Positions 7,051 through 40,869 of a stretch of DNA of 43,465 nt are shown one piece after another. The translations under genes were made by a program, and so were the position numbers. The stretch lies in the IMG/VR virus record IMGVR_UViG_2563366823_000003. The stretch is one strand, 5' to 3'. Source of the stretch: a virus. Its lineage: Duplodnaviria > Heunggongvirae > Uroviricota > Caudoviricetes. The first letter of the stretch is position 1. Each line of letters opens with the position of its first letter. Under the pieces are notes generated by a model. It saw only the letters and a list, made by a program, of their open reading frames with translations, was not told the DNA's origin and made no database searches.

Positions 7051-7053
7051 CAA

Positions 7054-7608: not shown

Positions 7609-7615
7609 TTCTTAA

Positions 7616-7963: not shown

Positions 7964-7965
7964 TT

Positions 7966-9030
7966 CTATAATCCTCTCTGCAAAGCAGTGCTGGATGGCA
8001 TATCCTGCGCACCGCGCGCTTCGCACATCATATCCATGTACCACGCCTGGCCCCTTGTGTCGCCAGTGTACATAATCCCGCGCACAATATAAACGCCATC
8101 CGTTGCGATGCTGGCAGGCTGCGATGTGGTGCCGCTTAGCGTGATATTTCCATCCGTGTTCTGGTCGGTGATCTGACCACCAGCCATCGCAATATCGTTG
8201 TTCGACAACGCGGTACGATACACTGAAACCTGATCCAGCTGAATGAGTCCGTTAACCCGGATGTTCGGATTAATAAGCGCGCGGACGTTTACGCCGTTAC
8301 CGATAGTCTGCTGCGGCATGCCAATAAGCCCGGTAGCGCTGTTGAGCACAATCGCTTCATGAACATATTCGTTATTCGCCACCATCTGGCGCTGGCCGTC
8401 CACGAATTGCCATGTTGCGCCACATTGCCCGGCTACGTTATCCATTAGATGCCGCGTCATGCCAAAGAGTACCCGCCCCCGGGGGAATACAGTAGCAGGC
8501 ATTTCAGGCGTCAGGCCTTCGGTCGCGCCTTTGGCTTCGAAGTCTTTCATCAGCGCACGGCTCACATCAGCGACCGTGTAACCGGCAGCCAGCGTCTGTG
8601 AGGTTATACTGGTGGCAAAAGCCAGATCTGTATCGGCTGCCTGAATCAGGACGTAGGTATCAACCGGACTGTCTTTTCCTGTGACCGAGTAGCGAATTTC
8701 ACCGCTGAAAATCAGTCCGTAGTTGCGGCCATCACTCTGGCCCACGTCCGCCGCGTCAACTTCCCGCACTGTCCCGACGTCGCTTGCCGACACCTCCGGC
8801 GCGATACCGTCGTAACCCGCAATCAGACGCACTTTCGAAAACTCCTGCCCGGTGATTCGGTTCACAGTATCTGCCGAGAGGTTATAAATTTTGATAGTCC
8901 CTACCCGGGACGCGCTGCTGATGTTGAACCAGTCGATCGTAAAGGTGACTTTAAAATCACTTAGCTCAATTCCCTGACCGTTCCCGTCCACAAGCTGCAG
9001 CTCGAAATGTCTCATCCAGTTCTGTGACAT
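7966..9030 (-). CDS. putative baseplate hub protein (Mu gp44-like position)
   Basis: ORF in the tail module; ATG 9030 preceded by GGAG, immediately after the upstream stop. Confidence 0.5.
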   Translation of the reverse strand: MSQNWMRHFELQLVDGNGQGIELSDFKVTFTIDWFNISSASRVGTIKIYNLSADTVNRITGQEFSKVRLIAGYDGIAPEVSASDVGTVREVDAADVGQSDGRNYGLIFSGEIRYSVTGKDSPVDTYVLIQAADTDLAFATSITSQTLAAGYTVADVSRALMKDFEAKGATEGLTPEMPATVFPRGRVLFGMTRHLMDNVAGQCGATWQFVDGQRQMVANNEYVHEAIVLNSATGLIGMPQQTIGNGVNVRALINPNIRVNGLIQLDQVSVYRTALSNNDIAMAGGQITDQNTDGNITLSGTTSQPASIATDGVYIVRGIMYTGDTRGQAWYMDMMCEARGAQDMPSSTALQRGL

Positions 9031-21180: not shown

Positions 21181-22583
21181 CAGGCCTGTCTCCCCAGCTG
21201 TTCCCAGATATCCAGCGATGTATCAATTGGCGCGAAGGCCATAATGAATGCGTCAGCAACGTTTGGTGACGGTATCTCGCGTTTTGCGAGGTCTTTTTTA
21301 CTTTCGACCATCACACGTCCGTTACGGTCAAAATCGCGATGAGGTGTTGTCAGTTCCAGTTTCAGCTTTTCAAGCAACGGACAACTAGAATCTATGCTGA
21401 TCAGCTCATCCACAGGATACTTTTCTCCGTTGTTAATGGCGTTAAACGTATTTCTGAAACGGTCAGCCACCAGCCACCATGCCTGAGCCTTAAGATTTGC
21501 GAAAAAGTCTTTGTTGGGGATGCCGTTGTATTCGTCATCTGGCTCATGCACACCAGCACCGGCGTTAAACCTCTGGTAATTCACACGTCGCGCGTATGCA
21601 TTCTCGCTCTTCCGGTCAGCGTTAATTTCAGAGAATTTAGCACCGGCAGACGCACCAACACCGATAGAGTCGTAAACAATATCTGCTTCACGCTCCAGCG
21701 CCGCCTGATAAGTACGCTGGCAGCTCTTCAGTAATTCATCTTCTTTGGCCTTCCATTCGTCGGCCCAGAAAACAACGGATCCGTGACGGTAAACGTTAGC
21801 GCACTTATCTGTACCACTGTCAGCCACGTCAAAGCCAATACGCTTTCTTCCACTGGGTTCGAAATTTAACGTTTTGTGCGCATCCACTGCGGCTTCTATC
21901 CAGGACAGTTTGATGATTGCCGCATCATCATCAGACTCCGGAACGCCCTCATACACATGCTTAAAACCATCCGGATCACGGCGTCGCGCCGCGTCGATAA
22001 CCTTAAGCATGGTGTCAGACAGAAACGGATTTTCGTCGTAGTTAATTTTGCGGATGAGAGTACCTTCGGGCGGATCAACAACGAAGTTGCGCCAGACGAA
22101 ATCAGTAACAAGTCCGGGGTTGAATATGAACCAGCATTCCGAACCCTCTTTACGGATCGTTGGCTCCAGAATTTTCCACTGGTATTCCGTCAGTGCGTGG
22201 GCTTCTTCCAGCCACAACACATCGATCCCCTCCAGTGACTTAATTTCTTCGATGTTGCGCCATAATCCATAAAAAACAAATTCCGAGCCAGTAACCCGGT
22301 TAATGATTTTGTTGTTCAGAATACGGAAACGGTGCCGCAGGCCAAACCTGTCTATCTGAATTTTGAGCAGGGTATACACCGACTCTTCGATTTTATTCTG
22401 GATCTGACGGGCACAACAAAAACGCAGGGTGTATTTATTCGACAGAAATATGGCAATGCCAGCGGCATCCCATGATTTTGACGATGACCGGCCACCATAA
22501 AGCACTTTGTTACGTGCCCGCGTAGTCCAGAAACTACGTAAAGCCGGATTAAGCGTCGGTTTGGATGTCAGAGTAGAAGTCAT
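21180..22583 (-). CDS. terminase large subunit
   Basis: Walker A-like GGRSSSKSWD and nuclease-domain acidic residues; start placed at ATG 22583, the track's earlier start overlaps the small subunit more. Confidence 0.8.
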   Translation of the reverse strand: MTSTLTSKPTLNPALRSFWTTRARNKVLYGGRSSSKSWDAAGIAIFLSNKYTLRFCCARQIQNKIEESVYTLLKIQIDRFGLRHRFRILNNKIINRVTGSEFVFYGLWRNIEEIKSLEGIDVLWLEEAHALTEYQWKILEPTIRKEGSECWFIFNPGLVTDFVWRNFVVDPPEGTLIRKINYDENPFLSDTMLKVIDAARRRDPDGFKHVYEGVPESDDDAAIIKLSWIEAAVDAHKTLNFEPSGRKRIGFDVADSGTDKCANVYRHGSVVFWADEWKAKEDELLKSCQRTYQAALEREADIVYDSIGVGASAGAKFSEINADRKSENAYARRVNYQRFNAGAGVHEPDDEYNGIPNKDFFANLKAQAWWLVADRFRNTFNAINNGEKYPVDELISIDSSCPLLEKLKLELTTPHRDFDRNGRVMVESKKDLAKREIPSPNVADAFIMAFAPIDTSLDIWEQLGRQA

Positions 22584-23298
22584 TGAGGTCACGCTCTCCA
22601 TTGCCATCATCAATACCTGCATCACGGCGAAGACGATCAGCCTCCAGAGACACCTTATCAGTGGCGGCCTTGCGGTAGGCTGTATCAGCAAATATTTTTC
22701 CTACCGTCGCAAGCGTGCCAACGATGGACTCAATACGAACTGTATTGCGCATCATTGCTTTCTCGGCGGCGCTGATATTTTCCATCAGCATCTTCCTTTC
22801 CTGGTCCCCATTAGCATCTTCCAGCGACACCAACCACCGACCAATATTCTCTGCAGCGACAAGGTTGTTAGCACGAAGGCGAAATAATTCGTCCTCGAGC
22901 GTCAACGCTTTAGCATCCTCTATCACCTCATCTTTGAGCAGAAGGCGACGGGCATAACCACCGTGTTTTAATGCCTGCTGGTTACCGGGTTGGAATGGGT
23001 TAGTCGGGGGATCGGTACGCATTCCGCGTATCGGTTTCGTATCCGGTGTAGGTTCTGTTTTTGGTTGCGTACCTTTTTGTGTAAGGTCAGTAATGGCAGG
23101 CTTTCTGCTGGTACGCACTTTTCTTTTTTGCGTACCATTTTTGCAAACCTGCGTACCGCCACTGCGTACCCAACCAAGCTTTTTAGCCCTCTTCCTGATA
23201 GCCCCTTCTGTTACGCCGTATTTCTCGCCTATATCACGGAGGCTAAGGACTCCGGCCCGGTATGCCGATTCGATGGCCTCCCAGTCCGGTTTTGCCAT
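22549..23298 (-). CDS. terminase small subunit (HTH DNA-binding)
   Basis: 249 aa with N-terminal HTH-like LSLRDIGEKYGVTEGAIRKRAKKLGW, upstream of the large subunit. Confidence 0.6.
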   Translation of the reverse strand: MAKPDWEAIESAYRAGVLSLRDIGEKYGVTEGAIRKRAKKLGWVRSGGTQVCKNGTQKRKVRTSRKPAITDLTQKGTQPKTEPTPDTKPIRGMRTDPPTNPFQPGNQQALKHGGYARRLLLKDEVIEDAKALTLEDELFRLRANNLVAAENIGRWLVSLEDANGDQERKMLMENISAAEKAMMRNTVRIESIVGTLATVGKIFADTAYRKAATDKVSLEADRLRRDAGIDDGNGERDLNDFYSDIQTDA

Positions 23299-23355
23299 GA
23301 ATTTTTCCTCTTAGTGACATTATCGAAGCCCCTTATCAAAGGAGCTTCTGTAATG

Positions 23356-23541
23356 TCAGTCCCGAACGAACGTAACCTTCGTGTTTGTCGCTCGCCTTAC
23401 AAGGCGCGCCGCTTCGCGTTGCATTTCATCGATAACTTTTGGCGTCATCGGCTGATGCGCATATTTACGTTCAATCTCTGCAAAAATCCCGTTCATCGTT
23501 TCGCTGTCTGGTGGGATAACTTCAACGTTTAATCGTGCCAT
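23356..23541 (-). CDS. small hypothetical protein (~61 aa)
   Basis: ORF between lysis and terminase genes; start at internal ATG (MARLNVEV...). Confidence 0.3.
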   Translation of the reverse strand: MARLNVEVIPPDSETMNGIFAEIERKYAHQPMTPKVIDEMQREAARLVRRATNTKVTFVRD

Positions 23542-23800
23542 TGGTTTGTGCTGCCCTGTTTTTCTCAAAAGTCCTGATATCGGCCTTATCCCTGTTGCAC
23601 TGTGCTAACGCTGACAGCAACGCAACATTCAGGTTAAGGCTGGCTCCCCACGTAAACGGGTCGGGTAAATCTGGCTGGGGTGTTTCATCCGTCAGACTGG
23701 CTGGCAACGGAACGACCGGCACCGACACGTATACCGTTCGCGTATTCGTGCAACCGCTTAACTGCGCCAGAAGGAACGATACGAACAGCGCAATCATCAT
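23522..23800 (-). CDS. Rz1-like outer-membrane spanin lipoprotein
   Basis: Alternate-frame ORF overlapping the 3' end of the Rz-like gene; lipobox LSGC after a hydrophobic signal; Pro-rich mature region. Confidence 0.5.
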   Translation of the reverse strand: MMIALFVSFLLAQLSGCTNTRTVYVSVPVVPLPASLTDETPQPDLPDPFTWGASLNLNVALLSALAQCNRDKADIRTFEKNRAAQTNGTIKR

Positions 23801-24077
23801 CCGCAACAGCCACTTTGATATCTTCCTGGGTTCTCTGTGACTCCAGTGCGATCTGCTGTTTTGCATGCTGGTTAGCCTCTATAACTGTATTGATGATTTG
23901 CAGTGATTGCAGGACGTTACTGGTAATGGCTGTTGCAGATTCAGCATTTCGTACAGCCTCATCAGCACGCTCCTTTTCGTGCTGATATTTGCTGTAGTAA
24001 TGCCCGGCAGACCAGATGAAAGAACCGATGACGGTAACAAAGGAGGCAACAATAACCAGCTTATATCTCGGCTTCAT
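23685..24077 (-). CDS. Rz-like inner-membrane spanin
   Basis: 130 aa with N-terminal TM helix and coiled-coil body, directly downstream of and overlapping the endolysin. Confidence 0.6.
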   Translation of the reverse strand: MKPRYKLVIVASFVTVIGSFIWSAGHYYSKYQHEKERADEAVRNAESATAITSNVLQSLQIINTVIEANQHAKQQIALESQRTQEDIKVAVADDDCAVRIVPSGAVKRLHEYANGIRVGAGRSVASQSDG

Positions 24078-24537
24078 TTACCACCCCACCAGCTTCTTTA
24101 AATCGGGCAATCAGGTCACCGACTCTATGTTCATACTGACCGTAACCAGCACCCGGCAACGAAGCCCAGATATTGCTGCAACGGTCGATTGCCTGATGGA
24201 TATCGCCGCGGTCAATCATCGGTAAAGCACCACGCTCTTTAATCTGCTGCAATGCCACTGCGTCCTGGCTTTTCGGAGAGAAGTCTTTCAGCCCAAGCTG
24301 CTTACGGTAGGCATCCCACCAACGGGAAAGAAGCTGGTAACGTCCGGCAGCTGTTGATTTGAGTTTCGGATTTAGCATGACAAGTTTGCGGGGGTGATCG
24401 GAGTAATCAGTGAACAGTTCGCCACCGACAATAACATCATAACCGTGATTTCTGGTTTTCTGCCGTCTGTTATCTGTTCCTTCTGACCACGCCACCATAT
24501 CAAGGAAAGCTTTACGCTGGGAATTAAGTGTCTGCAT
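24061..24537 (-). CDS. R: endolysin, lambda R-type lytic transglycosylase
   Basis: 158 aa; NSQRKAFLDM.AWSEGTDN.RQKTRNHGYDVIVGGELFTDYSDHPRK matches recalled lambda R along its length. Confidence 0.9.
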   Translation of the reverse strand: MQTLNSQRKAFLDMVAWSEGTDNRRQKTRNHGYDVIVGGELFTDYSDHPRKLVMLNPKLKSTAAGRYQLLSRWWDAYRKQLGLKDFSPKSQDAVALQQIKERGALPMIDRGDIHQAIDRCSNIWASLPGAGYGQYEHRVGDLIARFKEAGGVVNEAEI

Positions 24538-24540
24538 TAA

Positions 24541-24876
24541 TTACTCCTTATGGGCACCGAACTTGTTACCGATGACCCTCATTGCTGCACCACGAATAGC
24601 ATCAACACCAATCAGCCCCACCCCACCACCAATGGCAACAGAAAGTGATTTAGGCCATCCGACATACTCAAGCGCGGATGCAAAGGTCAGCGTCAGGGCA
24701 CCACAGAGCAAAATCTCAAGCGTTTTTCGTTTCCAGCCCCCATCACCGCCAAAATAGGCGATGCGCAAACCAGCCATAACGATCGACATAATCACTGCGC
24801 CCAGCGGAGTGTCTCCACGCCACCAGCTCTGAAACAACTCCAGCCAGTCCGGCCAGGTATTTGGGTTATGAGGCAT
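24541..24876 (-). CDS. holin
   Basis: Small membrane protein upstream of the endolysin with hydrophobic segments; two in-frame starts (24900 and 24876). Confidence 0.6.
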   Translation of the reverse strand: MPHNPNTWPDWLELFQSWWRGDTPLGAVIMSIVMAGLRIAYFGGDGGWKRKTLEILLCGALTLTFASALEYVGWPKSLSVAIGGGVGLIGVDAIRGAAMRVIGNKFGAHKE

Positions 24877-25240
24877 TTCATCATCTCTCACCTCGCACAT
24901 ATCGCGGGTGCAAATTGAGGGAATAAAAAATCCCCGAATATTCCAGGAGCGGAAACGGGGAAAGGCGTTGCACTAAATGGGCCTGTCTGCGGCCTTAAAT
25001 AAAAAACCCCGGCAAATGCCGAGGTCAGTTAATCGTTGCCGCTGTGAGTGCCGCGGCGCACTATCTCTTTATCAGGCCACTTACGCGTTAAACCGGGTGC
25101 CAACCGTAACTCAGTGATGCTTTACGCTTCCTCTCCCTCACTACGTCGCCATGGGAGCCCGACCAGATTAACGCTGTCGTCGCGTTGCCAATATTTGGCA
25201 TCCAATGCATTCTTTTTATTTAGCTATTTCATTTTTCTAT

Positions 25241-25276
25241 CCGTCAGAAACAACAAAACCCGCTCAATGGCGGGTT
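25241..25276 (-). terminator. tR'-like terminator downstream of Q
   Basis: 7-bp stem aacccgc/gcgggtt followed on the minus strand by TTTTGTTGTTTCTG, ~90 nt downstream of the Q stop. Confidence 0.5.
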
Positions 25277-25359
25277 CTGGTAAAGTTCATGCGCTTGGTT
25301 CGCCTCGCGATACAGCTTTGCGAAGCATACCGGAATTGAAGCAGTTTATGCGTAAAAAA

Positions 25360-25902
25360 TCAAGCTATTTTTTGAGCAAATGATTCTCGCATGGGAATAT
25401 ATAGGGCATACTCAGCAACAGCCAACCAATTAGCAATTCGCTTTTCGCATGTGCTAAAACACCACTCAGGATGTGCATCATTTAGCAATTCAGCCATTTT
25501 GCGCTTAGCCATCCCCCGTCCTTCATACCGTTGCCGGAGGACACTAATCAATCCAGGATGCTCTGCCAGCACCTCACTTATGACTCTATCAATACATAAC
25601 GCCTCTGCATCAGTACAATGCGCCAGCCAGGTCTTTTGCTTGCCATTGATCATCTCTCGCAAAAACGCTTCCAGCTCAGGTTTCTCTATTCCCGCTTTTT
25701 TCATCCTGCGCAGGGCTTCATTGACGGCTGTTTTCGTCAATTTTTGGGATGCCAGCAACTGGTTAAACATATTTCCCGTCTTACCGCCGCCAATATACGA
25801 CCAGCGCCCCCACATGCGCAGTTTTCCCTGAATCCAGACACTTTCCAGCGTGGTGAGACGAAGGTGTTCCCCGCTTTTGCCTGTATTTGTTGGGTAAATC
25901 AT
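25360..25902 (-). CDS. late-gene antiterminator Q
   Basis: ORF upstream of the lysis cassette; ATG 25902 with AAGGAAGG upstream and ATGA overlap with the preceding gene; family from recall. Confidence 0.6.
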   Translation of the reverse strand: MIYPTNTGKSGEHLRLTTLESVWIQGKLRMWGRWSYIGGGKTGNMFNQLLASQKLTKTAVNEALRRMKKAGIEKPELEAFLREMINGKQKTWLAHCTDAEALCIDRVISEVLAEHPGLISVLRQRYEGRGMAKRKMAELLNDAHPEWCFSTCEKRIANWLAVAEYALYIPMRESFAQKIA

Positions 25903-26189
25903 AAATAACCTTCCTTTCTCCAGATTTCTTGTGTGCGAAAAACACCTTCTGCATGCATCAGGCGTAATTCTTCTTTGGTGTAATCGCTGTTTTTTACCCG
26001 CCCGTCGATTAAATCGTGGCATGAGCTACAGGCAATCGCTGCCTGCATATCGTGTGGTTTTGTCGCTGTTCCGCACGTCCCCGCCAGCCTGTAATGCGCC
26101 AGCACAGATGTTTCGGGATTGTGATTGCAGTAGCCAGGAATTCTGACGGTGCACATCTGCCCCCGCGCCGCTTTACGTAAATCCACCAT
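25899..26189 (-). CDS. YbcO-like protein (DUF1364), putative Zn-binding nuclease
   Basis: 96 aa; MVDLRKAARG...RIPGYCNHNPETSVLAH...KPHDMQAAIACSSCHD resembles recalled DLP12 YbcO. Confidence 0.6.
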   Translation of the reverse strand: MVDLRKAARGQMCTVRIPGYCNHNPETSVLAHYRLAGTCGTATKPHDMQAAIACSSCHDLIDGRVKNSDYTKEELRLMHAEGVFRTQEIWRKEGYL

Positions 26190-26788
26190 TACGCAAACTC
26201 CAGTAACTGCGCGGCCACATTTTCGACTTCCTCCGGAGAGGAAAATTTACGGAACAGTATCCAGTTCCACAGCACATTCAGTACAGATTTATAAACCTGC
26301 TGAAACTCGGTTTCGTCCATGTTCGCAAATGCGATAGATTTTGCCCTGCGCCCACGACTACCGTCCGGATAAAAATGTTCGGTGTAAAATCCGGCCTGAA
26401 TGGTTACCCATTCGCGAAAAGCGTCAAAGGACTTGAGTAAGGCCGTATCCCGGGTTCTGCAAGTCGCAACGGTGTTAAGGTATTGCTCTGCGGCATCACT
26501 CAGGGCTGGCGTATGTTCCCGACCTACTGATTCGCACAGGAAATCAACGAAACCGGACACCAGTTCTCGTTCGCGAGGCGTGATCGCCCCACCGACCGGA
26601 GTCCAGTAATCGAATCCCAGTTGCAGGAGTTTGAAAAAACGCTTGTGGAATGCGTAGTTACGCACTCGCTTAAATTCCGCGTGTATCCACTCACCTATTT
26701 TGATTTGATGTAAAAAATCGCAACTCTCCGGCGTCGCCGGGAGAAGTAATCCAGAAGAGGTTTGTTTGACCAGTTGTATATGCGCCAT
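26189..26788 (-). CDS. phage protein of the nin region (DUF1367-like)
   Basis: 199-aa ORF upstream of the ybcO-like gene; family by recall only. Confidence 0.45.
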   Translation of the reverse strand: MAHIQLVKQTSSGLLLPATPESCDFLHQIKIGEWIHAEFKRVRNYAFHKRFFKLLQLGFDYWTPVGGAITPRERELVSGFVDFLCESVGREHTPALSDAAEQYLNTVATCRTRDTALLKSFDAFREWVTIQAGFYTEHFYPDGSRGRRAKSIAFANMDETEFQQVYKSVLNVLWNWILFRKFSSPEEVENVAAQLLEFA

Positions 26789-26859
26789 CGTAGTTCTCCG
26801 CTGGCGCAGTAGAATGGGTGTTCAGCCCGTTATGTAGTATACCAGAATTAATGCCAATA

Positions 26860-27111
26860 CTAACAGGATGCTCTGACTCGCAATTCATCCTGCAGTTTAT
26901 CATTTCCCATAATGTCACTTACCCTCATCGGTAAAAAAATTGCCTTTCGACCATTACGATACATCATTGATTTTTTGGTTTCAGGGAAGTAATCCATTTC
27001 GACTATAACTGACAGGTCATCACGACGTATGACTGCATATTTGCTACTAAATGGTTTCTTTATTTTTTCCACGATGCCTCCAGGTTTATAAGTACAAACG
27101 GTTATATCCAC
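26860..27111 (-). CDS. hypothetical protein (83 aa), AT-rich
   Basis: ORF in the low-GC region next to hokD; no recognisable motifs. Confidence 0.35.
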   Translation of the reverse strand: MDITVCTYKPGGIVEKIKKPFSSKYAVIRRDDLSVIVEMDYFPETKKSMMYRNGRKAIFLPMRVSDIMGNDKLQDELRVRASC

Positions 27112-27379
27112 ATAGAGACAAAAATATTAATCTGAAAAATATTTATTTCACGTCGTATATTTGATTATTTAATGTGCAGGTGCAATGACTTTTATTTTTT
27201 GTTGTGTATATAATCAAATATATGGTTATTTTTCACCCTGCGCATTCAGCGCGCAACAAAAAACCCGCCGAAGCGCTGAGGGATCCCCATAAATCAGCGC
27301 TGAAGCGGGTTAAGTGCGGGTGCGTTGAGGATGCCTGACTCATCAGAGGTGGCGAGGGATTTCTCCCTCGCCTGGTCTC

Positions 27380-27535
27380 TTACTCCTCAGGTTCGTAAGC
27401 TGTGAAGACAGCGACCTCCGTCTGGCCGGTTCGGATTCGTACCTCGCAGAGGTCTTTCCTCGTTACCAGTGCCGTCACTATGACGGTTAAACAGATGACG
27501 ATCAGGGCGATTAACATCGCCTTTTGCTGCTTCAT
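27380..27535 (-). CDS. hokD: Hok/Gef-family membrane toxin (type I toxin-antitoxin)
   Basis: 51 aa MKQQKAMLIALIVICLTVIVTALVTRKDLCEVRIRTGQTEVAVFTAYEPEE matches recalled HokD/RelF; hairpin-rich 3' UTR and in-frame upstream extension. Confidence 0.8.
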   Translation of the reverse strand: MKQQKAMLIALIVICLTVIVTALVTRKDLCEVRIRTGQTEVAVFTAYEPEE

Positions 27536-27677
27536 AGCCTGCTTCTCCTTGCCTTTCGGCACGTAAGAGGCTAACCTACATGTGCAAAGCATGAAATTGG
27601 CCTCAGATTAATGTTAAGCGTCTTGCCGGACGCGTAATGTTAACTGGGGCTTTTCTCTATCTGCCTTTGGTGTTCGT

Positions 27678-27717
27678 GCCCGAGGCAGATAGCCTCAAGC
27701 ACCCGCCGTGATTCTAC
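27678..27717. repeat. left copy of a ~40-bp imperfect direct repeat flanking the AT-rich cargo island
   Basis: gcccgaggcagatagcctcaagcacccgccgtgattctac versus gcctgagacagacaacctcaagcacccgcagcaattctac at 29698-29737, ~82% identity. Confidence 0.6.
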
Positions 27718-27942
27718 AAAAACATTACCCACCTTTCCAGCAATTCACAACAACTCCATGCAAATAGTAAGTAGAATAATAAGTTATTAGTATTAGCAAT
27801 TTACTTAGTTTCTAATTTGTGCCAATGATTTTCATTTTTGCATGAAAAATACCTTAACATTTTATATTTACTTACTATTTGTAAGCCCCATCAGTTCTTT
27901 CTGATGGCGGCTGGTATTTCAGTTCCAGATATAGTATATGCT

Positions 27943-28971
27943 TTACGCCTTAATAGGGTTAATCACATTTCCGCTATCCGTACCATAGTATTTTTTTGTA
28001 GTCATGCCTTGTTTATAATAATCATTTAACAGTTTGAGAAAGTTTCTTCCTTGCCTCTCATCTTCTATGACTAATTTACCATGCTCATTGGTCTTAAACT
28101 CTTCGTTCTGAAACATTTTTAACACATCATTCATAGCTTGAACATCATTCTTTTCCAGAGCCGTATGGTTACCTTTCTCAGCGATATGAGTGAGAATTTT
28201 TCTCAGTGATGGCTTATGAAGAATAGCTTGTTCAATAACATCTAAACCTTCAATAAGATCAAGTTCTTTAATTGTATTTAATGTTTTTTGTGCAGCTTCT
28301 GTAAACTCAACCTCCAAGCCTACAATAGCCTCAAAACTTTTCTTATGAAATACATAAAATTGATCTTTTATATAAATACAATCGATTTTGTCATCAAAAT
28401 TGACTGCGCTGCCATCAAATGATCTTAACTCTTTATCTGTTTTATCAAACAAAGCGAATACGCGCTGAGTCATATTTTGTGGTTCATTTGTTGTGACTTT
28501 CCCCCTGCTGATTTTTCGGAAAGAATAAGTGACGTCAGCCCCCTTTTGGACTTTAATACAATAGGCCCACAAATCATTCTGAACCTCAGCAAGAGAGGTA
28601 AGTACAACTGGTTTATCATTCTTTATATCGTTATTAATAACTTTTGAAAACGATATCGCGTTATTCATAGCATAGGCATAAATCTTATTGTCAATATCAT
28701 CATCAATAACAGTATACTTTTTCATCACAATATCATCTTTCGAAGCATGAGAAATAATCTGGTTTGATAAAGTATACTTAAAAAATTTAGCAATATCTGG
28801 AGCGATAGGAGCTTTAATGATTTTAAAATCGAATTTATCAACAACTCTTGCGGTTCTACTCATACCCGCTTTAAGATGTCTAGTAATGAAATACAACGAT
28901 ATTTTCGCCGCATCATCATCCTTAAGTTGCTCAGCATACTCTAATAATTCTTCAAGCTTTAACATTTTCAT
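27943..28971 (-). CDS. 342-aa soluble hypothetical protein; candidate defence effector (KwaB-like?)
   Basis: Very AT-rich ORF; its ATG overlaps the stop of the upstream membrane ORF (ATGA); Kiwa assignment is hypothesis only. Confidence 0.55.
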   Translation of the reverse strand: MKMLKLEELLEYAEQLKDDDAAKISLYFITRHLKAGMSRTARVVDKFDFKIIKAPIAPDIAKFFKYTLSNQIISHASKDDIVMKKYTVIDDDIDNKIYAYAMNNAISFSKVINNDIKNDKPVVLTSLAEVQNDLWAYCIKVQKGADVTYSFRKISRGKVTTNEPQNMTQRVFALFDKTDKELRSFDGSAVNFDDKIDCIYIKDQFYVFHKKSFEAIVGLEVEFTEAAQKTLNTIKELDLIEGLDVIEQAILHKPSLRKILTHIAEKGNHTALEKNDVQAMNDVLKMFQNEEFKTNEHGKLVIEDERQGRNFLKLLNDYYKQGMTTKKYYGTDSGNVINPIKA

Positions 28972-29583
28972 TCCTTATGGGATTCAGCATAAAAAAGTTT
29001 TGGGCCCACGTCCTCAACATCAAGAAGATCATCTTCCTCCAAATACTTGGATTTAGTCAAAACCATACCAGTGCGTTTTTTGTCGCTTTCTAAATCCAAA
29101 TATGTAACTTGATATAAAGTATAATTAATACTTATTGTAGGATTTATAAGTATCATGCTTGAATTAATATATATTAAAGCCGTTACCGTTAACAATATTG
29201 CTATAGGTATAACATTAGTTAAATGTGGATAGGTCCTGAAATACAAACGGAATTATATATGTAAAAAGATAGCTTATTGATTCATTGTTTTTATTTTCAA
29301 TATCTATAACTCTTACAGTTCTACCACTAGTGGCGCATCGACGTTTTATATTTTTTAAAAAAATTGTTAATCCTACAATACCAAATAATGATAATACACC
29401 AATGACACTGACCGCGCCAAAGTATTTAAAGAAAATAGTTAATGATTCAACACTTATACCTTTCCAATTTAAATAGCTTCTATAAGTATACAATTGCACA
29501 AAACACATGATAAAGAATAGGGGAAGGTATGACACTATAAATAGCGAAACTCTAGCACCTAAATGTAGTTTATTTACTCTCAT
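28968..29583 (-). CDS. multi-pass membrane protein (~205 aa, 4 TM) apparently split by a frameshift; KwaA-like?
   Basis: Two overlapping ORFs (29215-29583 and 28968-29252) each with two hydrophobic helices; second frame has no ATG at its head (TTG). Confidence 0.45.
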
Positions 29584-29697
29584 AACTACCCCACAGCCTA
29601 CACGTCTAGTATTTTATGTTATTTCGAATAATTATGCATCAGATTACCATCCTACAATTGTGCATAAAACGAGCATTTTGCTGATTTTTCTGCGGAT

Positions 29698-29737
29698 GCC
29701 TGAGACAGACAACCTCAAGCACCCGCAGCAATTCTAC
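29698..29737. repeat. right copy of the direct repeat flanking the cargo island
   Basis: See the left copy at 27678-27717. Confidence 0.6.
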
Positions 29738-29845
29738 TTAACTCTCCTTTTCCCGCAAACCGTTTTTATCCCCAGCGGCAAATCGAATACACCACCAGCG
29801 CCACCGCCATCGCAATTCCTACCGTGGTGAATGCTTCAGGCCAGG

Positions 29846-30361
29846 TCATCGCAAAACATCCTCCGCGCTTATCAGTTCGTTCCGCTTCAGGTAGTCCATC
29901 GCCTTCTCCGGTAATTTGCAGTCCGGCTTAGCTTTTTCCAGTTGGCTGGCCAGTCGTTTAACCCACATTGTTAATTCGCTAACCTGATTGCCGGATGCTG
30001 ATGGATTGTCGGCTTTACCCAAAATGGCAGCACAGCAGACCTCTTTGAGCACCCAGTCAATGGCGTCTTTCCATGCTCCGGTTTCAACTGGCGGATTCTC
30101 ACGCCGTACCTGTTCATAAAAGCGCACAGCTTTAACCAGTCCTTCTGATGTCACCGGGGCTGGCGGGGCCGTGAATAACGCCTGAATTTCATAGTTTGGT
30201 CTGTCGTTACAATCTTCTTTTGTCGGGACATATTTCCAGTCACCAGCCCACTGCTTCCCCTGAAAGTCTGTAACGTCTTTTTTCACGTAGCGATATCGCC
30301 ATGCAACTGGTTTTGCCTGCCCTGCCGTTTCATGCCCTTCCTGATAATTAATCTCGCTCAT
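29846..30361 (-). CDS. hypothetical phage early protein (171 aa)
   Basis: ORF with ATGA start/stop overlap to the upstream small gene. Confidence 0.5.
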   Translation of the reverse strand: MSEINYQEGHETAGQAKPVAWRYRYVKKDVTDFQGKQWAGDWKYVPTKEDCNDRPNYEIQALFTAPPAPVTSEGLVKAVRFYEQVRRENPPVETGAWKDAIDWVLKEVCCAAILGKADNPSASGNQVSELTMWVKRLASQLEKAKPDCKLPEKAMDYLKRNELISAEDVLR

Positions 30362-30534
30362 TCATCGCCCCACTCATCACAATATGCTTCTACCGGAGTT
30401 TTTCCTGCTTCGTAGTCATCACTCCAGGCTTCAGCATCAGCAGCACTTCCACCACGTAACTCTGCATAGTTCATTAACAGTTCATGCCATTCTTCAAAAC
30501 TGACGTTGTATTTAGTTGAACCAAAATCAGCCAT
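30358..30534 (-). CDS. small hypothetical protein (58 aa)
   Basis: MADFGSTKYNVSFEEWHELLMNYAELRGGSAADAEAWSDDYEAGKTPVEAYCDEWGDE; below track cutoff; coupled to both neighbours. Confidence 0.4.
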   Translation of the reverse strand: MADFGSTKYNVSFEEWHELLMNYAELRGGSAADAEAWSDDYEAGKTPVEAYCDEWGDE

Positions 30535-30709
30535 TTTGTTCTTCCTCTTCGTCTTTTATTTCGTGATATGAATAATTGCAGTAGTTAAAGAAAATTTCTT
30601 TTGCTTCGTCATGAATTTCATCAGGTGTTGCGTCATCGTCCACTTCGAATACATCCTCAAAATCTCCACCAGCTATTCCCGTTTCAATAATTATTTTGAA
30701 CTTTCGCAT
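30527..30709 (-). CDS. small acidic hypothetical protein (60 aa)
   Basis: ORF in a chain of coupled small early genes. Confidence 0.35.
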   Translation of the reverse strand: MRKFKIIIETGIAGGDFEDVFEVDDDATPDEIHDEAKEIFFNYCNYSYHEIKDEEEEQNG

Positions 30710-30799
30710 TTCACTACCGCCATTTCGAACGGCCTCCTGATGTTTTGAGGGTGCAGAAATCCCTCCGGTTAAGGATTATATTTTCAATAATAATGTTGA

Positions 30800-31213
30800 T
30801 TATTCGGGGCCAAGTTTTGTCGCCCTGCGTATCCGCGCTTTCACATTACGCTCAATCTGAATTAGCTTTTCTATATTTTTACGTCTTTCCCGCTCCTCCT
30901 GACGCAATTGTTTTACATCATCTGCCAGTCTGGTTTCTCTTTTCGCCACAGAGAGCATCCAGTCAAATGGCTCCACAACTGCGCCACATATTTTGCAGCG
31001 GACCTGACGCTCTTTTTCATCAACCCTGACAGAAGCGTGATGGCAATATGGTTTCTCCGATGGCTCATAAAGAAAATTAACCTGATTACGTGGGTCATCA
31101 TCTTTTACCGGAAATAAAACAATATTCCCGGACTCATCTTCTGGGGTTATTTCCACGTCACTCTCCTTTGATGCGAATGCCAGCGGCAATTGAAGCCTGA
31201 TAGCTGATTTCAC
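30800..31213 (-). CDS. hypothetical protein (137 aa) with Cys/His cluster
   Basis: ORF with C-H-H...C-x2-C arrangement suggesting a small Zn-binding module. Confidence 0.45.
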   Translation of the reverse strand: MKSAIRLQLPLAFASKESDVEITPEDESGNIVLFPVKDDDPRNQVNFLYEPSEKPYCHHASVRVDEKERQVRCKICGAVVEPFDWMLSVAKRETRLADDVKQLRQEERERRKNIEKLIQIERNVKARIRRATKLGPE

Positions 31214-31636
31214 TCACAGCACCACCTCCTGAAAATTCCCCTGATAAAACGCCAGCACGCGCTGCATAACTTCGCTCTTCCGGCACTCGCTACAGATTAT
31301 GTTCTGACGCCTGTCATAACGACGTATTTCTCCGTCTGGCAATGACCAGATTAGGTTTGGATCTACCACAACCGGTTTCTTCACCTTTGCCCTCGATAGC
31401 TTTTTGCGGGCGTTTTGCCAGTCTTTACGAGCCTGTTCAGAGGGAAATAACCCGTAGCCAGAGTTGTATACATCACCACTAGCAACCAGCTCTCTGGCGA
31501 GAACACTCATCAGATATCTTGTCGCACCTGTTTTCGCTTCCAGTTGCCGTAACGTCTCGCGACCGCTCAGACGTACAAGTTCAACAACCTGCCCTTTAAT
31601 TTTTTCCCGCTCTTCTGGTGTAAATACTTTTGCCAT
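31214..31636 (-). CDS. hypothetical phage protein (140 aa)
   Basis: ORF adjacent to the upstream gene (ATG follows its stop). Confidence 0.45.
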   Translation of the reverse strand: MAKVFTPEEREKIKGQVVELVRLSGRETLRQLEAKTGATRYLMSVLARELVASGDVYNSGYGLFPSEQARKDWQNARKKLSRAKVKKPVVVDPNLIWSLPDGEIRRYDRRQNIICSECRKSEVMQRVLAFYQGNFQEVVL

Positions 31637-31651
31637 AGGTGCCTCCGATAA

Positions 31652-32464
31652 TCACTTTTCCGACACAATACGACTGGAGGAATCGACAATCTGTCGGACA
31701 ATATCCCGGTGCTTGTTCAGCTCCCGCAGCGCGGCGCAGACTCGCTCCCACTTCTGGACATGATTTTTCGCCCGACGAAGTTCGCGGTTTGCCATTTGCA
31801 GCGATGGTAAAATCAGGTCATCCGCTTGCGTTTCGGTGAACGATGGCAGCGACTGCACAATGTCCGCCACAGTTTCTGTTTTAATATCTTCCTGTGTTGC
31901 AGCTTCCTGTACTGGTAACGCAACACATGCAGGCTGAGGAAAGGCTTTACCATCAGTTTCCGCTACCGATGCCGCTTTCGGCTCTGCTGGTAAATTATCG
32001 CCCGGCATGCAGTAACGAAATTTACCGTTCTGATTAACGCGAATCAGACGACCTTTGCTGATTGCCATTGCCAGCGTTGAAGCCACTTTGCGGGATGTTG
32101 TACCGAACAGCGTAGCCAGTTCATCCGCCGTTTGTGGTCCGCGTTGTTCAATCGTCGCGGTTAAATCGCACTCTGAGATTTTCGCTACTGTCGCCGTGGT
32201 GGTTTCTTCCGGCTGTTCTTCTGGCGCTGGCTGTTCCTGCTGAACGTTGTTATCAGCCACACGCCAGGTGTATACGCTTTTATCAACGCAGCCAGCCTTT
32301 TTCAGTTCCCACAGCTCGTTCAGTACTTCTTCACGACTGATATCAAGTCGCGCAGCCAGCTCTACCGACGTGGCTTTTCCCATCGCTTTCAGTGCGTCAA
32401 AAACAGTCTCCATTAAAATTTCCTCCCGGTAAAAATCACTTCGCAATTCCTTGCTGGACGACAT
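31652..32464 (-). CDS. hypothetical protein with two winged-helix-like segments (270 aa)
   Basis: Track ORF; start uncertain (internal Met 18 METVFDALK... would remove the overlap with the DnaC-like gene). Confidence 0.4.
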
Positions 32465-33182
32465 TCGGACGCCAGCTCTCCCAGTTAAAATTCACCCATC
32501 GCCCGCCGTTCATGGTCATGCGATCCATAATCCGCTCGCCGAGCAATGTTTTCATGGCCTCATAGTTCAGGTTTGTCAGCATCCCCACGCTGCGCATCGA
32601 CGCTGTCCGGCGATCAACAATCTGGTGCAGCACCACCTGCTCGTTTTTCGTCTCGCGCTGAATGCCAATTTCATCAAGAACCAGCAGATCCACTTCGCAC
32701 AGCTCCCGCAAAAATTTTTCGCCTGACTGCCCGTCGTCATAGCTGGCGTGCAGGGCGCTCATAACATCAGCCACGGTAACCACAATCACTGTCTGACCGT
32801 CTTTCAGCAGGCGATTCCCGATAGCTGCCGCTAAGTGATTCTTCCCGGTACCAGGTTTTCCGCTGAACGCAAAATTTGTACACCCGGTCATCAGTTCATC
32901 GGCGATGGATTTCGCCTGGCTTAACGCGTACCGCTGGCCGTCGTTCTGCACCTGGTAATTCGCAAACGAGCATTTACGGTGCAACGGCTGGATGCCTGAA
33001 CGATTCAGAATTTTTTCCACCCGCAACTGGCGATTCAGGCGGTTGATCTCCTCGCTACGTTTCTGGCCTTCAGCAAGTTGCCACTCGCGCCACTCCGCTA
33101 CCGTTCTGAATGGGGCGGTTACATGTGGCGGGGTCAGTCGGCGGATGCGTTCCAGAACGCCGCCTGTCGCAATATTTTTCAT
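32436..33182 (-). CDS. DnaC-like helicase loader (IstB-like AAA+ ATPase)
   Basis: Walker [16 protein letters not shown] and Walker B LLVLDEIG; downstream of the O-like initiator. Confidence 0.8.
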
Positions 33183-33188
33183 GGTCCA

Positions 33189-33983
33189 TTACCCCCTGAA
33201 GCCTGGCGGGATCGCACTGTCCGGCAACGAGACAGTGTTAACCTGTCGGAGCAACGTCTCAGGCCGAACACCTTTCGGCGCGAACAGGCCCTGGTATTCA
33301 TTGGCGATGCTGTGTCGAATCACCTGCTCAGGTGTAAAACCCTGCTGACGGAATTTTTCCAGCTCCCGTATCGCCCCGTTAGCGCCCTGCTCCGTTCGAA
33401 TCGGTTTTCGCAATGCCTGCCTGAACTTAACCCACTCATGCCAGAGTGTTTCCGGCAACCAGTCAGGCAGCTCGATAGCCTCCGGCTCGAATTTTTTAGA
33501 CGCTCGTTTTTGGCGAGGGGGATTTAGGGGGAGATCAGTATTTATATCTTCCTCTTCCTCTTCCTCTTCCTCTGGTAACGCTTTTTGATCCGTTTGTGTA
33601 ACGCTGCCAGCGTTACCTTTTCGTTTCAGTTCGCGTATTTTTGTAACTCGCTCGTTTGTAACCGCCCGTTTTTTAGAGCTTTTTCCGTTATGACGTTCAA
33701 AGTTAGGTAGAGAAAGCCCACCGTCATTTTCGACCAGCCATCCAACCTGAATTAACGCATCAGCAAAACCAGCCATAAAAGTGATGCGGTCTATTGCACT
33801 TTTTGTAACGCCGCGAGCGTTACAATCTGCATTACCGTCTATCATTTGTTGATCCGCCCATGCCCAGAAGCGAATAACCTTCCCTAATGCGGCATCTGGA
33901 TCAATATTCAGAATCTCAGCAAGCCTGAATATTTCCGGCTTATCCGGCGTAATAACCTCGAGCTTTATCCAGTTTGAAGCCAT
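33189..33983 (-). CDS. replication initiator, O-like (YdaU/DUF1376-like)
   Basis: 264 aa with central poly-Glu linker, upstream of the DnaC-like gene; carries inverted-repeat motifs. Confidence 0.6.
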   Translation of the reverse strand: MASNWIKLEVITPDKPEIFRLAEILNIDPDAALGKVIRFWAWADQQMIDGNADCNARGVTKSAIDRITFMAGFADALIQVGWLVENDGGLSLPNFERHNGKSSKKRAVTNERVTKIRELKRKGNAGSVTQTDQKALPEEEEEEEEDINTDLPLNPPRQKRASKKFEPEAIELPDWLPETLWHEWVKFRQALRKPIRTEQGANGAIRELEKFRQQGFTPEQVIRHSIANEYQGLFAPKGVRPETLLRQVNTVSLPDSAIPPGFRG

Positions 33984-34060
33984 TTGTTTTCACCTTGTAA
34001 CGCTCGCAGCGTTACATTTAACTGATACCGAACAAAACAATCCGGCACGATTAATTTCAA

Positions 34061-34483
34061 TCAATGCACTACGACAGAATCGCCGGGCGACCCACCACCG
34101 CTGAAATGTGCTTTCCGGTAAACGGCCTGGACTGCATCATCATGCGCATCAATTGCCGTACTCAATGCTTCCTGCGCCGCCAGTAATGCACGGCGTTCCA
34201 GGGTATCGAAGATACAGAGTCGGTGACGCAGCTCGCGCGGAAGAATTGCCAGAACCGCAGGGATCAGTTTCTGAATTTTTTCCCTTTGCGCTTTCGTTTC
34301 ACCTTTCAACCAACGGTGATAGATATTCTGCTGATTGTTCCAGTCCTTGCCTGGTACAAGGGGCAATTCGCCGCCCCCCTGGCGCAGATATTCTTCAGTA
34401 ATTGCGTTAGCGACCCACGCCTGCCCTTTTTCGGCTGCCAGGGCCAACAACACTGATTCGATATGCTCATGCCTGATTTTCAT
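34061..34483 (-). CDS. YdaT-like protein (CII-position regulator)
   Basis: 140-aa ORF immediately downstream of the cro-like gene, same size and position as Rac ydaT (recalled). Confidence 0.5.
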   Translation of the reverse strand: MKIRHEHIESVLLALAAEKGQAWVANAITEEYLRQGGGELPLVPGKDWNNQQNIYHRWLKGETKAQREKIQKLIPAVLAILPRELRHRLCIFDTLERRALLAAQEALSTAIDAHDDAVQAVYRKAHFSGGGSPGDSVVVH

Positions 34484-34722
34484 GAATCAACCGCTCCTAT
34501 GCTGTTTTCGCTATGCTTACCGTCTGGGGGGAATACATCGTCAAGTCCACAATGAGCGCCAAGCCGATTAAGGGTAGAAACAATTTTTCTGCACTCCTCT
34601 AGCCCAGGGGTACGAAAATTTGCTTCGTAATTTGCCAGTCGGCTTTGTATCCACCCTAACTGAACAGCGAGTTGTCTTTGAGACAACCCAAGCTGTTTTC
34701 GATATGTTGAAATTTTGTTCAT
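34480..34722 (-). CDS. Cro/YdaS-like HTH regulator
   Basis: 80 aa with HTH LGLSQRQLAVQLGWIQSRLANYE; divergent from the repressor gene. Confidence 0.6.
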   Translation of the reverse strand: MNKISTYRKQLGLSQRQLAVQLGWIQSRLANYEANFRTPGLEECRKIVSTLNRLGAHCGLDDVFPPDGKHSENSIGAVDS

Positions 34723-34818
34723 TGAAAACCTCCGATGACAATTTTAAACACACATTGTGTTATATTGTCAAGCTATTTTGTGTTTTATGTAAATCACGAT
34801 TCGTGATACAAGGATGCA
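34723..34818. promoter_or_regulatory. divergent promoter/operator region between repressor and cro-like gene
   Basis: Palindromes aacacaCATtgtgtt (about 34746-34760) and atcacgaTtcgtgat (34791-34805) in a 96-bp intergenic region. Confidence 0.55.
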
Positions 34819-35238
34819 ATGGAAAAAGAAAACGAAAAAATTGCCGCTAGTAGGCTCAATGACAAAATTGCAATGCGTCTTAAAGAGCGCAGGCAGAAGC
34901 TTGGTTTATCTCAAGGAAAACTTGCTGAAATCTGCGGATGGACGCAATCGCGTATAGGTAACTATGAGGCGGGCAGCAGAAATGTTGGAGTGCATGACGC
35001 TGTCGTATTGGGAAAGGCTCTTGGCATATCTCCTCCTGAGCTCCTCTTTGGAGAACAGGAATCTTCTGAATTGTGGTTAAATGAATCCCAACGAAAACTT
35101 CTTGAGTTGTTTAACCAGCTACCGGGCTCAGAACAACAACGAATGATTGAGCTATTTGAAGTCCGGCTAAAAGAAATCGATGAGTATGTAGAAAAATATT
35201 TGAGAGGCAGGCTTAAAGATAATCCCCCACCGGAGTAA
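34819..35238 (+). CDS. prophage repressor, RacR-like (XRE-family HTH)
   Basis: 139 aa with HTH LGLSQGKLAEICGWTQSRIGNYE; no peptidase domain; divergent from cro-like gene. Confidence 0.7.
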   Translation: MEKENEKIAASRLNDKIAMRLKERRQKLGLSQGKLAEICGWTQSRIGNYEAGSRNVGVHDAVVLGKALGISPPELLFGEQESSELWLNESQRKLLELFNQLPGSEQQRMIELFEVRLKEIDEYVEKYLRGRLKDNPPPE

Positions 35239-35268
35239 TGATCTTGCTATCACAGTAATATGCCAATC

Positions 35269-35293
35269 AGCCCGCTATCAGCGGGCTTTTTTG
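35269..35293 (+). terminator. rho-independent terminator after the repressor gene
   Basis: Stem agcccgc/gcgggct with 5-nt loop followed by TTTTTT. Confidence 0.65.
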
Positions 35294-35543
35294 TACCATC
35301 ATCATATGACACCCACCACAAAACACATTTCGTGTTGACACAAGAAAACGCATTGTGTTTAATAAGCATATCCAAACAACGCCCCACCAGAGAACGGCAG
35401 GACAATACCTCGAGTTATCCAGCCACTGAACAGGGCTAAGTAGCCAGCCTGAGGCATACGAACATGACGGCAGTTGTTGATTGATACAAAGCGCAGTAGA
35501 TAAAACGTTCCGCCACCCGGCGTTAAGGGGAAATGAGGTCAAC

Positions 35544-35699
35544 ATGGATACTATCGATCTTGGCAACAACGAATCTCTGGTATGTGGCGTGTTTCCCAAT
35601 CAGGACGGCACATTCACCGCCATGACATATACCAAAAGCAAAACGTTTAAAACCGAAGCTGGCGCACGTCGTTGGTTGGGAAGACATTCAGGTGAGTAA
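35544..35699 (+). CDS. small hypothetical protein (51 aa)
   Basis: ATG-initiated ORF MDTIDLGNNESLV... downstream of operator-like palindromes. Confidence 0.4.
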   Translation: MDTIDLGNNESLVCGVFPNQDGTFTAMTYTKSKTFKTEAGARRWLGRHSGE

Positions 35700-35700
35700 A

Positions 35701-35904
35701 ATGAACGAGACAGAATTAAAACACGTTATCGCTCTACTCCTAGAAGATGCAAAACGCCTCCAGCAACTGGAGCCAAATGCAGGCACTGGGGCACGCATCT
35801 GGCTGGCTAAAGAAGCGCTGGAATCTGGCGATTATGATAGCGAAGAAGCCTTCTACAAAGCAGAAGGCCGTGCAGGATATTCACCGGGTCTTGGCGGGGT
35901 ATAA
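35701..35904 (+). CDS. small hypothetical protein (67 aa)
   Basis: ATG 35701 with AGGTGAG upstream; the track start at 35692 is GTG. Confidence 0.4.
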   Translation: MNETELKHVIALLLEDAKRLQQLEPNAGTGARIWLAKEALESGDYDSEEAFYKAEGRAGYSPGLGGV

Positions 35905-35994
35905 ATACCATGCGCATTGACTGAATTCGCAAACAAAAACAGACGCGCGATATCTGGATAGTCGGTCTGCATAGTCAGATATCTGGCTGCGAAT

Positions 35995-36171
35995 TTAATA
36001 AATATCACCGCCCTTTTCGGAAACATAAGTTCCGTCCGGGAGTTGATTATACGAACCATCTCCATGGGGGATCGTTCTCCTGAATCCTAGTGAGAGCATA
36101 TATTTATGAAGCCCTTCGTAATCCTCTGGCTCAGCATTATATAGTTCTACTCTGGCGAGATACGTTGGCAT
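35995..36171 (-). CDS. small hypothetical protein (~58 aa) in the sieB-equivalent position
   Basis: Minus-strand ORF MPTYLARVELYNAEPEDYEGLHKYM... with AAGGAA upstream of ATG 36171; only opposite-strand gene in the early-left operon. Confidence 0.4.
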   Translation of the reverse strand: MPTYLARVELYNAEPEDYEGLHKYMLSLGFRRTIPHGDGSYNQLPDGTYVSEKGGDIY

Positions 36172-40067: not shown

Positions 40068-40869
40068 GCAACCACCTATCGCAAAAGCCGATCTGCAAAA
40101 AACCCAGGGAAACCGTGCACCAGCAGCAGTAAAAAATAACGACGTGATCAGCTTTATTAATCAGCCATCAATGAAAGAGCAACTGGCAGCAGCTCTCCCA
40201 CGCCATATGACGGCTGAACGAATGATACGTATCGCCACCACAGAAATTCGTAAGGTTCCGGCGCTAGGAAACTGTGACACCATGAGTTTTGTCAGTGCGA
40301 TCGTTCAGTGTTCACAGCTCGGCCTTGAGCCAGGTAGCGCCCTCGGCCACGCATATTTACTGCCTTTTGGTAATAAAAACGAAAAGAGCGGTAAAAAGAA
40401 CGTTCAGCTAATCATTGGTTATCGCGGCATGATTGATCTGGCTCGCCGTTCTGGTCAAATCGCCAGCCTGTCAGCCCGTGTTGTCCGTGAAGGTGACGAG
40501 TTTAGTTTTGAATTTGGCCTTGATGAAAAGTTAATACACCGCCCGGGAGAAAACGAAGATGCAGCAGTGACCCACGTCTATGCTGTCGCAAGACTGAAAG
40601 ACGGAGGGACTCAGTTTGAAGTTATGACGCGCAAACAGATTGAGCTGGTGCGCAGCCAGAGTAAGGCTGGTAATAACGGGCCGTGGGTAACTCACTGGGA
40701 AGAAATGGCAAAAAAAACGGCTATTCGTCGCCTGTTTAAATACCTGCCTGTCTCAATTGAAATCCAGCGTGCAGTATCAATGGATGAAAAGGAACCACTG
40801 ACAATCGATCCGGCGGACTCCTCTGTATTAACCGGGGAATACAGTGTAATCGATAATTCAGAAGAATAA
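40060..40869 (+). CDS. recT: single-strand annealing recombinase RecT
   Basis: 269 aa from [14 protein letters not shown]; matches recalled E. coli RecT. Confidence 0.9.

Follow-up and report, generated by a model that had tools for sequence, protein, structure and literature searches.

Kiwa is an anti-phage defence system that was reportedly described in 2018, its structure and mechanism being said to have been worked out in 2025. The DNA analysed here, a stretch of 43,465 nucleotides (nt) from a virus of the Caudoviricetes (IMG/VR record IMGVR_UViG_2563366823_000003), is referred to as the window. We read a block on its minus strand, with considerable confidence, as a Kiwa cassette that is carried as cargo by an Escherichia coli prophage, that has a frameshifted kwaA gene and that is most likely a recently inactivated, non-protective copy.

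The prototype is the Kiwa system of E. coli O55:H7 RM12579 (KwaA P0DW45, KwaB P0DW46; PDB 9MRG, 9MRR, 9MRX, 9MTN, 9NYU). The source that PMC11785009 cites for it is Doron et al. 2018. KwaA, a membrane protein with four helices, forms tetramers, and these assemble with KwaB dimers into a membrane supercomplex in which KwaB is bound by a cytoplasmic beta-barrel made from the intracellular loop and the C-terminus of KwaA (PMC11785009). The complex is found where phages attach and reacts to disturbance of the membrane; KwaB, which binds incoming DNA with its DUF4868 domain, causes replication to stall and prevents late transcription, and lambda Gam antagonises the system (PMC11785009). Kiwa operons protect against both phages and conjugation, and both genes are needed. 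In ECOR8 Kiwa defence is abolished by deleting either gene or by truncating the transmembrane (TM) domains of KwaA, in ECOR49 Kiwa by mutations in the C-terminal beta-barrel (PMC11785009).

The block at 27718-29696 of the window is a two-gene Kiwa anti-phage operon, kwaA then kwaB, of the subfamily modelled by PADLOC KwaA PDLC00212 and KwaB PDLC00223. The kwaB gene (27943..28965, minus strand) is intact and encodes the DUF4868/KwaB DNA-binding effector, a protein of 340 amino acids (aa), or 342 aa from an alternative ATG at 28971. KwaB matches PDLC00223 over model positions 1-338 of 339 (E-value 1.5e-159, 528.6 bits), passes the Pfam family PF16162 (KwaB/DUF4868) with 60.1 bits against a gathering score of 26.3, and in its 340-aa form is 100% identical to WP_000915482.1. 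KwaA is present as two fragments, described below, which together cover model positions 2-204 of 205 in PDLC00212. Sequence searches of the PDB led from KwaB to 9mrx ('Kiwa protein KwaB', E-value 1.5e-5) and from KwaA to 9mrg ('Kiwa protein KwaA', E-value 3e-6), in both cases with no other protein type.

The predicted structures agree with this assignment. AlphaFold predictions were built from alignments of 56 KwaB and 52 KwaA homologues, the KwaA model being made from the intact allele (P0089). When the KwaB model (AF2, mean predicted local distance difference test score, pLDDT, 78.2) was compared with the PDB by Foldseek it matched six solved KwaB chains with a probability of 1.00 over about 345 aligned columns (E-values 7.6e-14 to 4.5e-10, TM-scores 0.57-0.65); the best of these was 9mrx_D, and the next match had an E-value of 0.28. 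The KwaA model (pLDDT 80) matched solely solved KwaA structures (9mrx_A, E-value 6e-11; TM-scores 0.78-0.81). The four TM helices and the cytoplasmic strands that are expected of a KwaA of about 200 aa are present in this intact-allele model, the helices at residues 8-33, 45-86, 99-115 and 121-140 and the strands at 88-97, 155-163, 168-176, 186-193 and 196-201.

An earlier note on this DNA, made from its letters alone, had pointed to a resemblance to Kiwa, with a KwaA of four TM helices plus a KwaB/DUF4868 protein, and the evidence from hidden Markov model (HMM), sequence and structure searches shows this to be correct. Its fallback of an undescribed two-gene system is refuted by the dedicated PADLOC models for both proteins and by the RefSeq names of identical proteins, which are 'Kiwa anti-phage protein KwaB-like domain-containing protein' and, in newer records, 'KwaA family protein'. 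Kiwa is thus a known system, and the subtype is catalogued, apparently without an experimental test. Both proteins score below the cut-offs of the NCBIfam equivalogs NF041622 and NF041623 (KwaB 57.7 bits against 200, intact KwaA 80.2 against 100) while the homology is still significant, which indicates a Kiwa subfamily different from the O55:H7 type. Homologues are found in Klebsiella, Aeromonas, Vibrio, Shewanella, Edwardsiella, Photobacterium and Pseudoalteromonas, and in Vibrio, Pseudoalteromonas and others the KwaA and KwaB homologues lie on contigs of identical length. Each of about 100 KwaA homologues is encoded by one open reading frame (ORF), of 199-213 aa. Pfam gave sub-threshold noise alone (LrgA, Comm) for the two KwaA fragments of the window, in a scanned set without PF28043 KwaA; this family is listed in the precomputed annotations.

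The window has no single intact ORF for kwaA. The earlier note had placed a protein of about 205 aa at 28968-29583, but this 616-nt span reaches a stop after 122 codons in one frame, and the ORF listing has two overlapping ORFs in different frames in its place. The 5' fragment (29215..29583, minus strand, 122 aa) encodes the first three TM helices (TM1-TM3) together with the intracellular-loop strand, up to a premature TAA that the frameshift creates; it matches positions 2-122 of the 205 in PDLC00212 (E-value 1.1e-58) and also the NCBIfam KwaA model (E-value 4e-12). The 3' fragment, in the +1 frame (28968..29246, minus strand, a mechanical ORF of 92 aa), encodes TM4 and the C-terminal beta strands and matches positions 116-204 of the same PADLOC model (E-value 4.2e-39). 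With neither a Shine-Dalgarno sequence nor a convincing start codon, this fragment is probably untranslated.

Alignment to the cassettes of strains CEA224S and AF56 places the frameshift at 29221..29223 on the minus strand, where a +1 insertion gives TTT in the window and the intact alleles have TT. On the gene strand the intact CCACATTAACTAATG becomes CCACATTTAACTAATG. With one T deleted, the gene encodes a 204-aa KwaA that is 100% identical to WP_001265627.1. The frameshifted product is truncated after residue 120, with two aberrant residues added, and keeps TM1-TM3 and the loop strand but loses TM4 and all the C-terminal strands; in the intact-allele model the cut lies between the third and fourth helices and upstream of the strands at 155-201. 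The earlier note overlooked this frameshift, on account of which the locus is probably not an active defence system.

The frameshift allele is real and not a sequencing error. The loci compared with the window were CEA224S, AF56, PEC399, GCA_910595065.1, SRR631002 and SRR30349956. The exact 122-aa product is encoded on three independent contigs, one from NCBI (GCA_910595065.1) and two from Logan (SRR631002 and SRR30349956), which are listed for 2, 9 and 3 samples, respectively. Over 3,654 nt the SRR631002 contig and the window show 100% identity. A 60-nt probe across the site detected the cassette in 155 complete E. coli genomes, all of them without the T insertion; the best match in each was 96.7%, equal to the indel plus one single-nucleotide polymorphism (SNP).

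The identical insertion occurs on two SNP haplotypes, one shared by the window, GCA_910595065.1 and SRR631002, the other that of SRR30349956. The latter has the Qin-type haplotype of AF56, with nine site differences from the window and the same insertion. Between 29049 and 29233 the haplotypes differ solely by the insertion, and its presence on both could reflect recurrent mutation or a short gene-conversion tract spanning 29049-29233.

Further lesions are seen in related cassettes. The prophage of GCA_910595065.1 is nearly identical to that of the window, and in its kwaB a TAT codon has become TAG at the equivalent of window position 28372 (Y198* in the 340-aa numbering). This nonsense change splits kwaB into ORFs of 197 aa and 142 aa on top of the kwaA frameshift, a second lesion that indicates continued decay, as expected once a system is dead. 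E. coli O22:H8 strain 154 (NZ_CP067426.1) has an IS3 element inside the matched region, and a 112-aa KwaA variant (P0131) diverges after residue 87.

The likely consequence of the insertion can be deduced from the solved complexes. A KwaA that ends between TM3 and TM4 would lack TM4 and the C-terminal strands that dock KwaB, and the intact KwaB would be left with neither sensor nor anchor in the membrane. Any translational coupling would also be lost, the premature stop being 247 nt upstream of kwaB. The operon is most likely a recently inactivated, non-protective copy, since TM4 and the barrel strands are lost, and kwaA, its TM region and the barrel are essential in the ECOR8 and ECOR49 systems.

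Several points weigh against this conclusion. The essentiality experiments used distantly related Kiwa subtypes, and relative to the solved O55:H7 proteins the window KwaB is only about 15% identical and KwaA about 22%. We found no record of an experimental test of this exact subtype; the gene-specific parts of the ECOR8 cloning primers (10.1101/2022.08.21.504612) have no match in the window, and the window operon could not be matched to any experimentally tested Kiwa operon. Some residual or altered activity is conceivable, because KwaB is 100% intact and has its own Shine-Dalgarno sequence. The identical frameshift on two SNP haplotypes could point to selection for the allele instead of simple decay, and the loss of function is itself something that we infer.

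In its most developed form the case for selection makes the T insertion a repeatedly selected allele that switches Kiwa off, or to a KwaB-only or split-KwaA mode, and, separately, has the cassette travelling from one lambdoid prophage to another as a unit enclosed by hok promoter/leader repeats; we consider this unlikely. It is also quite unlikely that the frameshifted operon has remained active in a modified way and that the allele is selected for this, whether through a split sensor, a ribosomal frame shift at UUU-AAC-UAA or KwaB alone. Its occurrence on both the background shared by the window, GCA_910595065.1 and SRR631002 and the Qin-type background of SRR30349956 would fit such activity, but is also explicable by the gene-conversion tract. 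KwaB is fully conserved and still has a Shine-Dalgarno sequence (AAGGA) of its own, yet GCA_910595065.1 has since lost kwaB, and the 3' fragment of kwaA has neither a Shine-Dalgarno sequence nor a good start codon from which the second part of a split sensor could be made. We know of no +1 slippery motif or stimulator at UUU-AAC-UAA, a sequence that was read by eye. Programmed +1 frameshifting was rejected for this reason and for the further decay seen in GCA_910595065.1. Natural splits of KwaB into two genes occur in 70 Kiwa loci, but the same study reports no split of KwaA, and found that deletion of kwaA or truncation of its TM region abolishes defence (PMC11785009).

A fully functional Kiwa, with the extra T an error of sequencing or assembly in this record, is very improbable. 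The change is a single base in a short run of T, apart from it the encoded proteins show 100% identity to those of intact alleles, and no complete E. coli genome has the insertion, as would be the case with an error; but the same product comes from three independent assemblies, of which the two from Logan were built from raw runs, one of them is identical to the window over 3.65 kb, and homopolymer errors do not typically arise in runs of two to three T. The nonsense mutation in kwaB of one lineage is also what would be expected after a real inactivation. Sequencing error was rejected on the three independent contigs and the 3,654-nt identity of SRR631002. That the two genes are non-defence prophage cargo, such as a membrane channel and a regulator, would suit a subtype that falls under both equivalog cut-offs and has no direct experimental test that we could find in the literature, but is extremely improbable given the full-length fold matches to solved Kiwa components with no competing matches, the gene order and sizes of Kiwa, the position in a prophage cargo site, and the defence given by every one of five divergent Kiwa operons that represent different phylogenetic clusters (PMC11785009).

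The inactivated operon forms a sharply bounded island. The cargo at 27718-29696 (1,979 bp, minus strand) has a GC fraction of 0.320, compared with 0.47 in each 2-kb flank and 0.48 in the whole window, and this is the minimum among all 1,979-bp windows of the 43-kb sequence (median 0.493). The GC profile lies at 0.29-0.35 over 27800-29600 and at about 0.47-0.55 on either side, so that the low-GC block claimed in the earlier note is borne out, with the dip exactly placed. Its account of the surroundings as a prophage cargo island also holds. On one side is hokD, where the ORF at 27380-27592 matches Pfam HOK_GEF and Rfam sok (RF01794) matches 27530-27704 with 113 bits, and on the other are early-region genes with DUF7167, DUF977, DUF1627 and a ydaV-like ATPase.

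The window as a whole is an E. coli prophage with genes for an integrase, an excisionase, recE, recT, the ydaV-like ATPase, DUF1627 and DUF977 proteins, the Kiwa cassette, hokD and a DUF1367 gene. Related prophages have ydaT, cI/cro-type regulators, DUF1364, DUF1133, lysis genes and a terminase annotated at the corresponding positions, and matches to baseplate and tail genes lie near the other end of the window. The host element is a Rac-like (RecET, YdaT/U/V) prophage of E. coli with the cassette in its early region, directly upstream of hokD. The apparent insertion site of the prophage is between pphA and yebY. Above about 97%, the 14 kb that surround the cassette (22000-36000) had no match in any complete RefSeq E. 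coli genome. Phage and plasmid collections searched by megablast with the cargo gave no match, and the cassette was found only in chromosomes. A metagenome scan with a pattern that fits both the intact and the frameshifted allele gave zero loci.

Two other low-GC stretches were observed in the window. The first (1611-2156, plus strand, GC about 0.36) lies at the prophage end beside a tail-fibre assembly gene; its product, of 181 aa, is a hexapeptide-repeat acyltransferase (Pfam Hexapep, 50.6 bits) with no PADLOC match, and the gene may be cargo for surface modification. The second (7054-8044, minus strand, GC about 0.38) lies among tail and baseplate genes; its ORFs of 184 and 142 aa have no Pfam match, and one has a marginal PADLOC PycTM match (E-value 9e-4).

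Within the operon kwaA lies directly upstream of kwaB on the same strand, the kwaA stop being at 28968-28970 and the kwaB ATG at 28963-28965 or 28969-28971. The 342-aa ORF at 27943-28971 noted earlier does exist. The overlap of the kwaA stop with its ATG is likewise present, as ATGA, although the 340-aa start at 28965 is favoured over that at 28971. This second ATG is backed by the spacing from an AAGGA Shine-Dalgarno sequence, by the start of the PADLOC model and by RefSeq annotation. A consensus scan found no terminator between kwaA and kwaB and none downstream of kwaB. Folding of 27860-27950 gave a hairpin at 27884..27912 (minus strand, z = -2.65), about 30 nt past the kwaB stop and with no U-tract, which may be a 3' end or a stabilising structure.

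The cargo is bracketed by a 41-nt direct repeat with 83% identity between its copies at 29697-29737 and 27677-27717. The upstream copy, DR-L (29697..29737, minus strand), is a truncated hok-type promoter -10 with the first 30 nt or so of a hok leader. It has TAGAAT at 29731-29736 and GGGTGCTTGAGG from 29724, and diverges into the cargo after about 30 nt; the homology with PEC399, described below, stops at this copy. The downstream copy, DR-R (27677..27717, minus strand), assigned from the repeat and Rfam, contains the -10 of the hokD promoter (27711-27716), whose -35 is TGGAAA at 27734-27739, and the beginning of the hok leader, with its +1 at about 27704. It leads into a complete hok/sok-type locus, hokD, directly downstream of the cassette (27380..27704, minus strand), with the leader and sok at 27530-27704 and the mok/hok ORF at 27380-27592 (Rfam RF01794, 113.2 bits against a gathering score of 59; Pfam HOK_GEF, E-value 2.7e-23). 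PEC399, a related prophage without Kiwa, has a single copy of the repeat, on which the flanks of the window converge with a 31-nt overlap (7024-7054), and it therefore represents the empty site.

The copy of the hok-type promoter at 29724-29736 probably drives transcription of kwaAB, with a leader of about 140 nt that has a predicted 12-bp hairpin at its 5' end. A promoter scan returned 12 promoter-like sites against 9.8 expected from shuffles, and a terminator scan none; neither scan is enriched, so it is the homology with the hok promoter and leader that supports this assignment. Insertion of a transposon with target-site duplication was rejected, as the repeats are 41 nt long, only 83% identical and recognisable as hok promoter and leader, and the cargo has no transposase. 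The prophage encodes RecE and RecT at 37413-40869. RecE/RecT can recombine homologies of about 40 nt, which speculatively suggests that the cassette is exchanged by RecET short-homology recombination between hok leader repeats. If this were true, hok leaders would be a docking site for defence cargo.

The locus has little importance beyond annotation, being a known system with existing PADLOC models and RefSeq names. The appropriate annotation for the window copy is a kwaA pseudogene beside an intact kwaB, and it should be excluded from counts of active systems in defence surveys. The repaired allele is one base away, and the two form a natural on/off pair for studying an apparently untested Kiwa subfamily. 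The hok-leader-flanked layout, together with the empty site, gives the exact boundaries of a cargo in a lambdoid prophage hotspot.

In its organisation the window cassette is like the Kiwa system of O55:H7. Both are two-gene operons with kwaA upstream of kwaB, both have a KwaA of about 200 aa with four TM helices and cytoplasmic beta strands and a KwaB of about 315-340 aa with DUF4868, and the predicted folds superpose over their full length. The HMMER alignment shows that three of the four alignable DNA contacts of KwaB are kept, with D169, K187 and R233 of the O55 protein corresponding to D193, K211 and R257 in the 342-aa numbering, whereas R167 aligns with N191 in the window. Identity in the structural alignments is low (14-16% for KwaB, 21-23% for KwaA), the KwaB-contacting loop residues K75, N77, Q79 and D80 of the O55:H7 KwaA are not conserved, and only the window kwaA is frameshifted. 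The ECOR8, ECOR12, ECOR49 and D9 Kiwa operons (PMC11785009) are of the same system type as the window; the C-terminus of KwaB implied by the ECOR8 reverse primer differs from that of the window KwaB.

The closest relatives are the intact alleles (WP_001265627.1 with WP_000915482.1 or WP_000915483.1), whose cassettes in CEA224S and AF56 are 99.4-99.6% identical to that of the window at the DNA level. The remaining differences from CEA224S within both genes leave the proteins unchanged, and the CEA224S cassette occupies the same hokD-adjacent position in a lambdoid prophage. In contrast to the window, kwaA is whole in 155 of the 155 complete genomes. The AF56 cassette lies at the queH-proximal end of a Qin prophage remnant, followed by a hok-leader fragment and a truncated ISNCY transposase, and the top-ranked complete-genome matches end at the same boundary (query position 2145). 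The flanks of the window cassette resemble hok/sok type I toxin-antitoxin loci in that each has a hok promoter -10 and leader start, the downstream copy belonging to the complete hokD locus. Unlike a hok/sok locus, the upstream copy retains only about 30 nt of leader before it is cut off and gives way to kwaAB instead of mok/hok, and this copy is a flank that stands outside the Kiwa mechanism.

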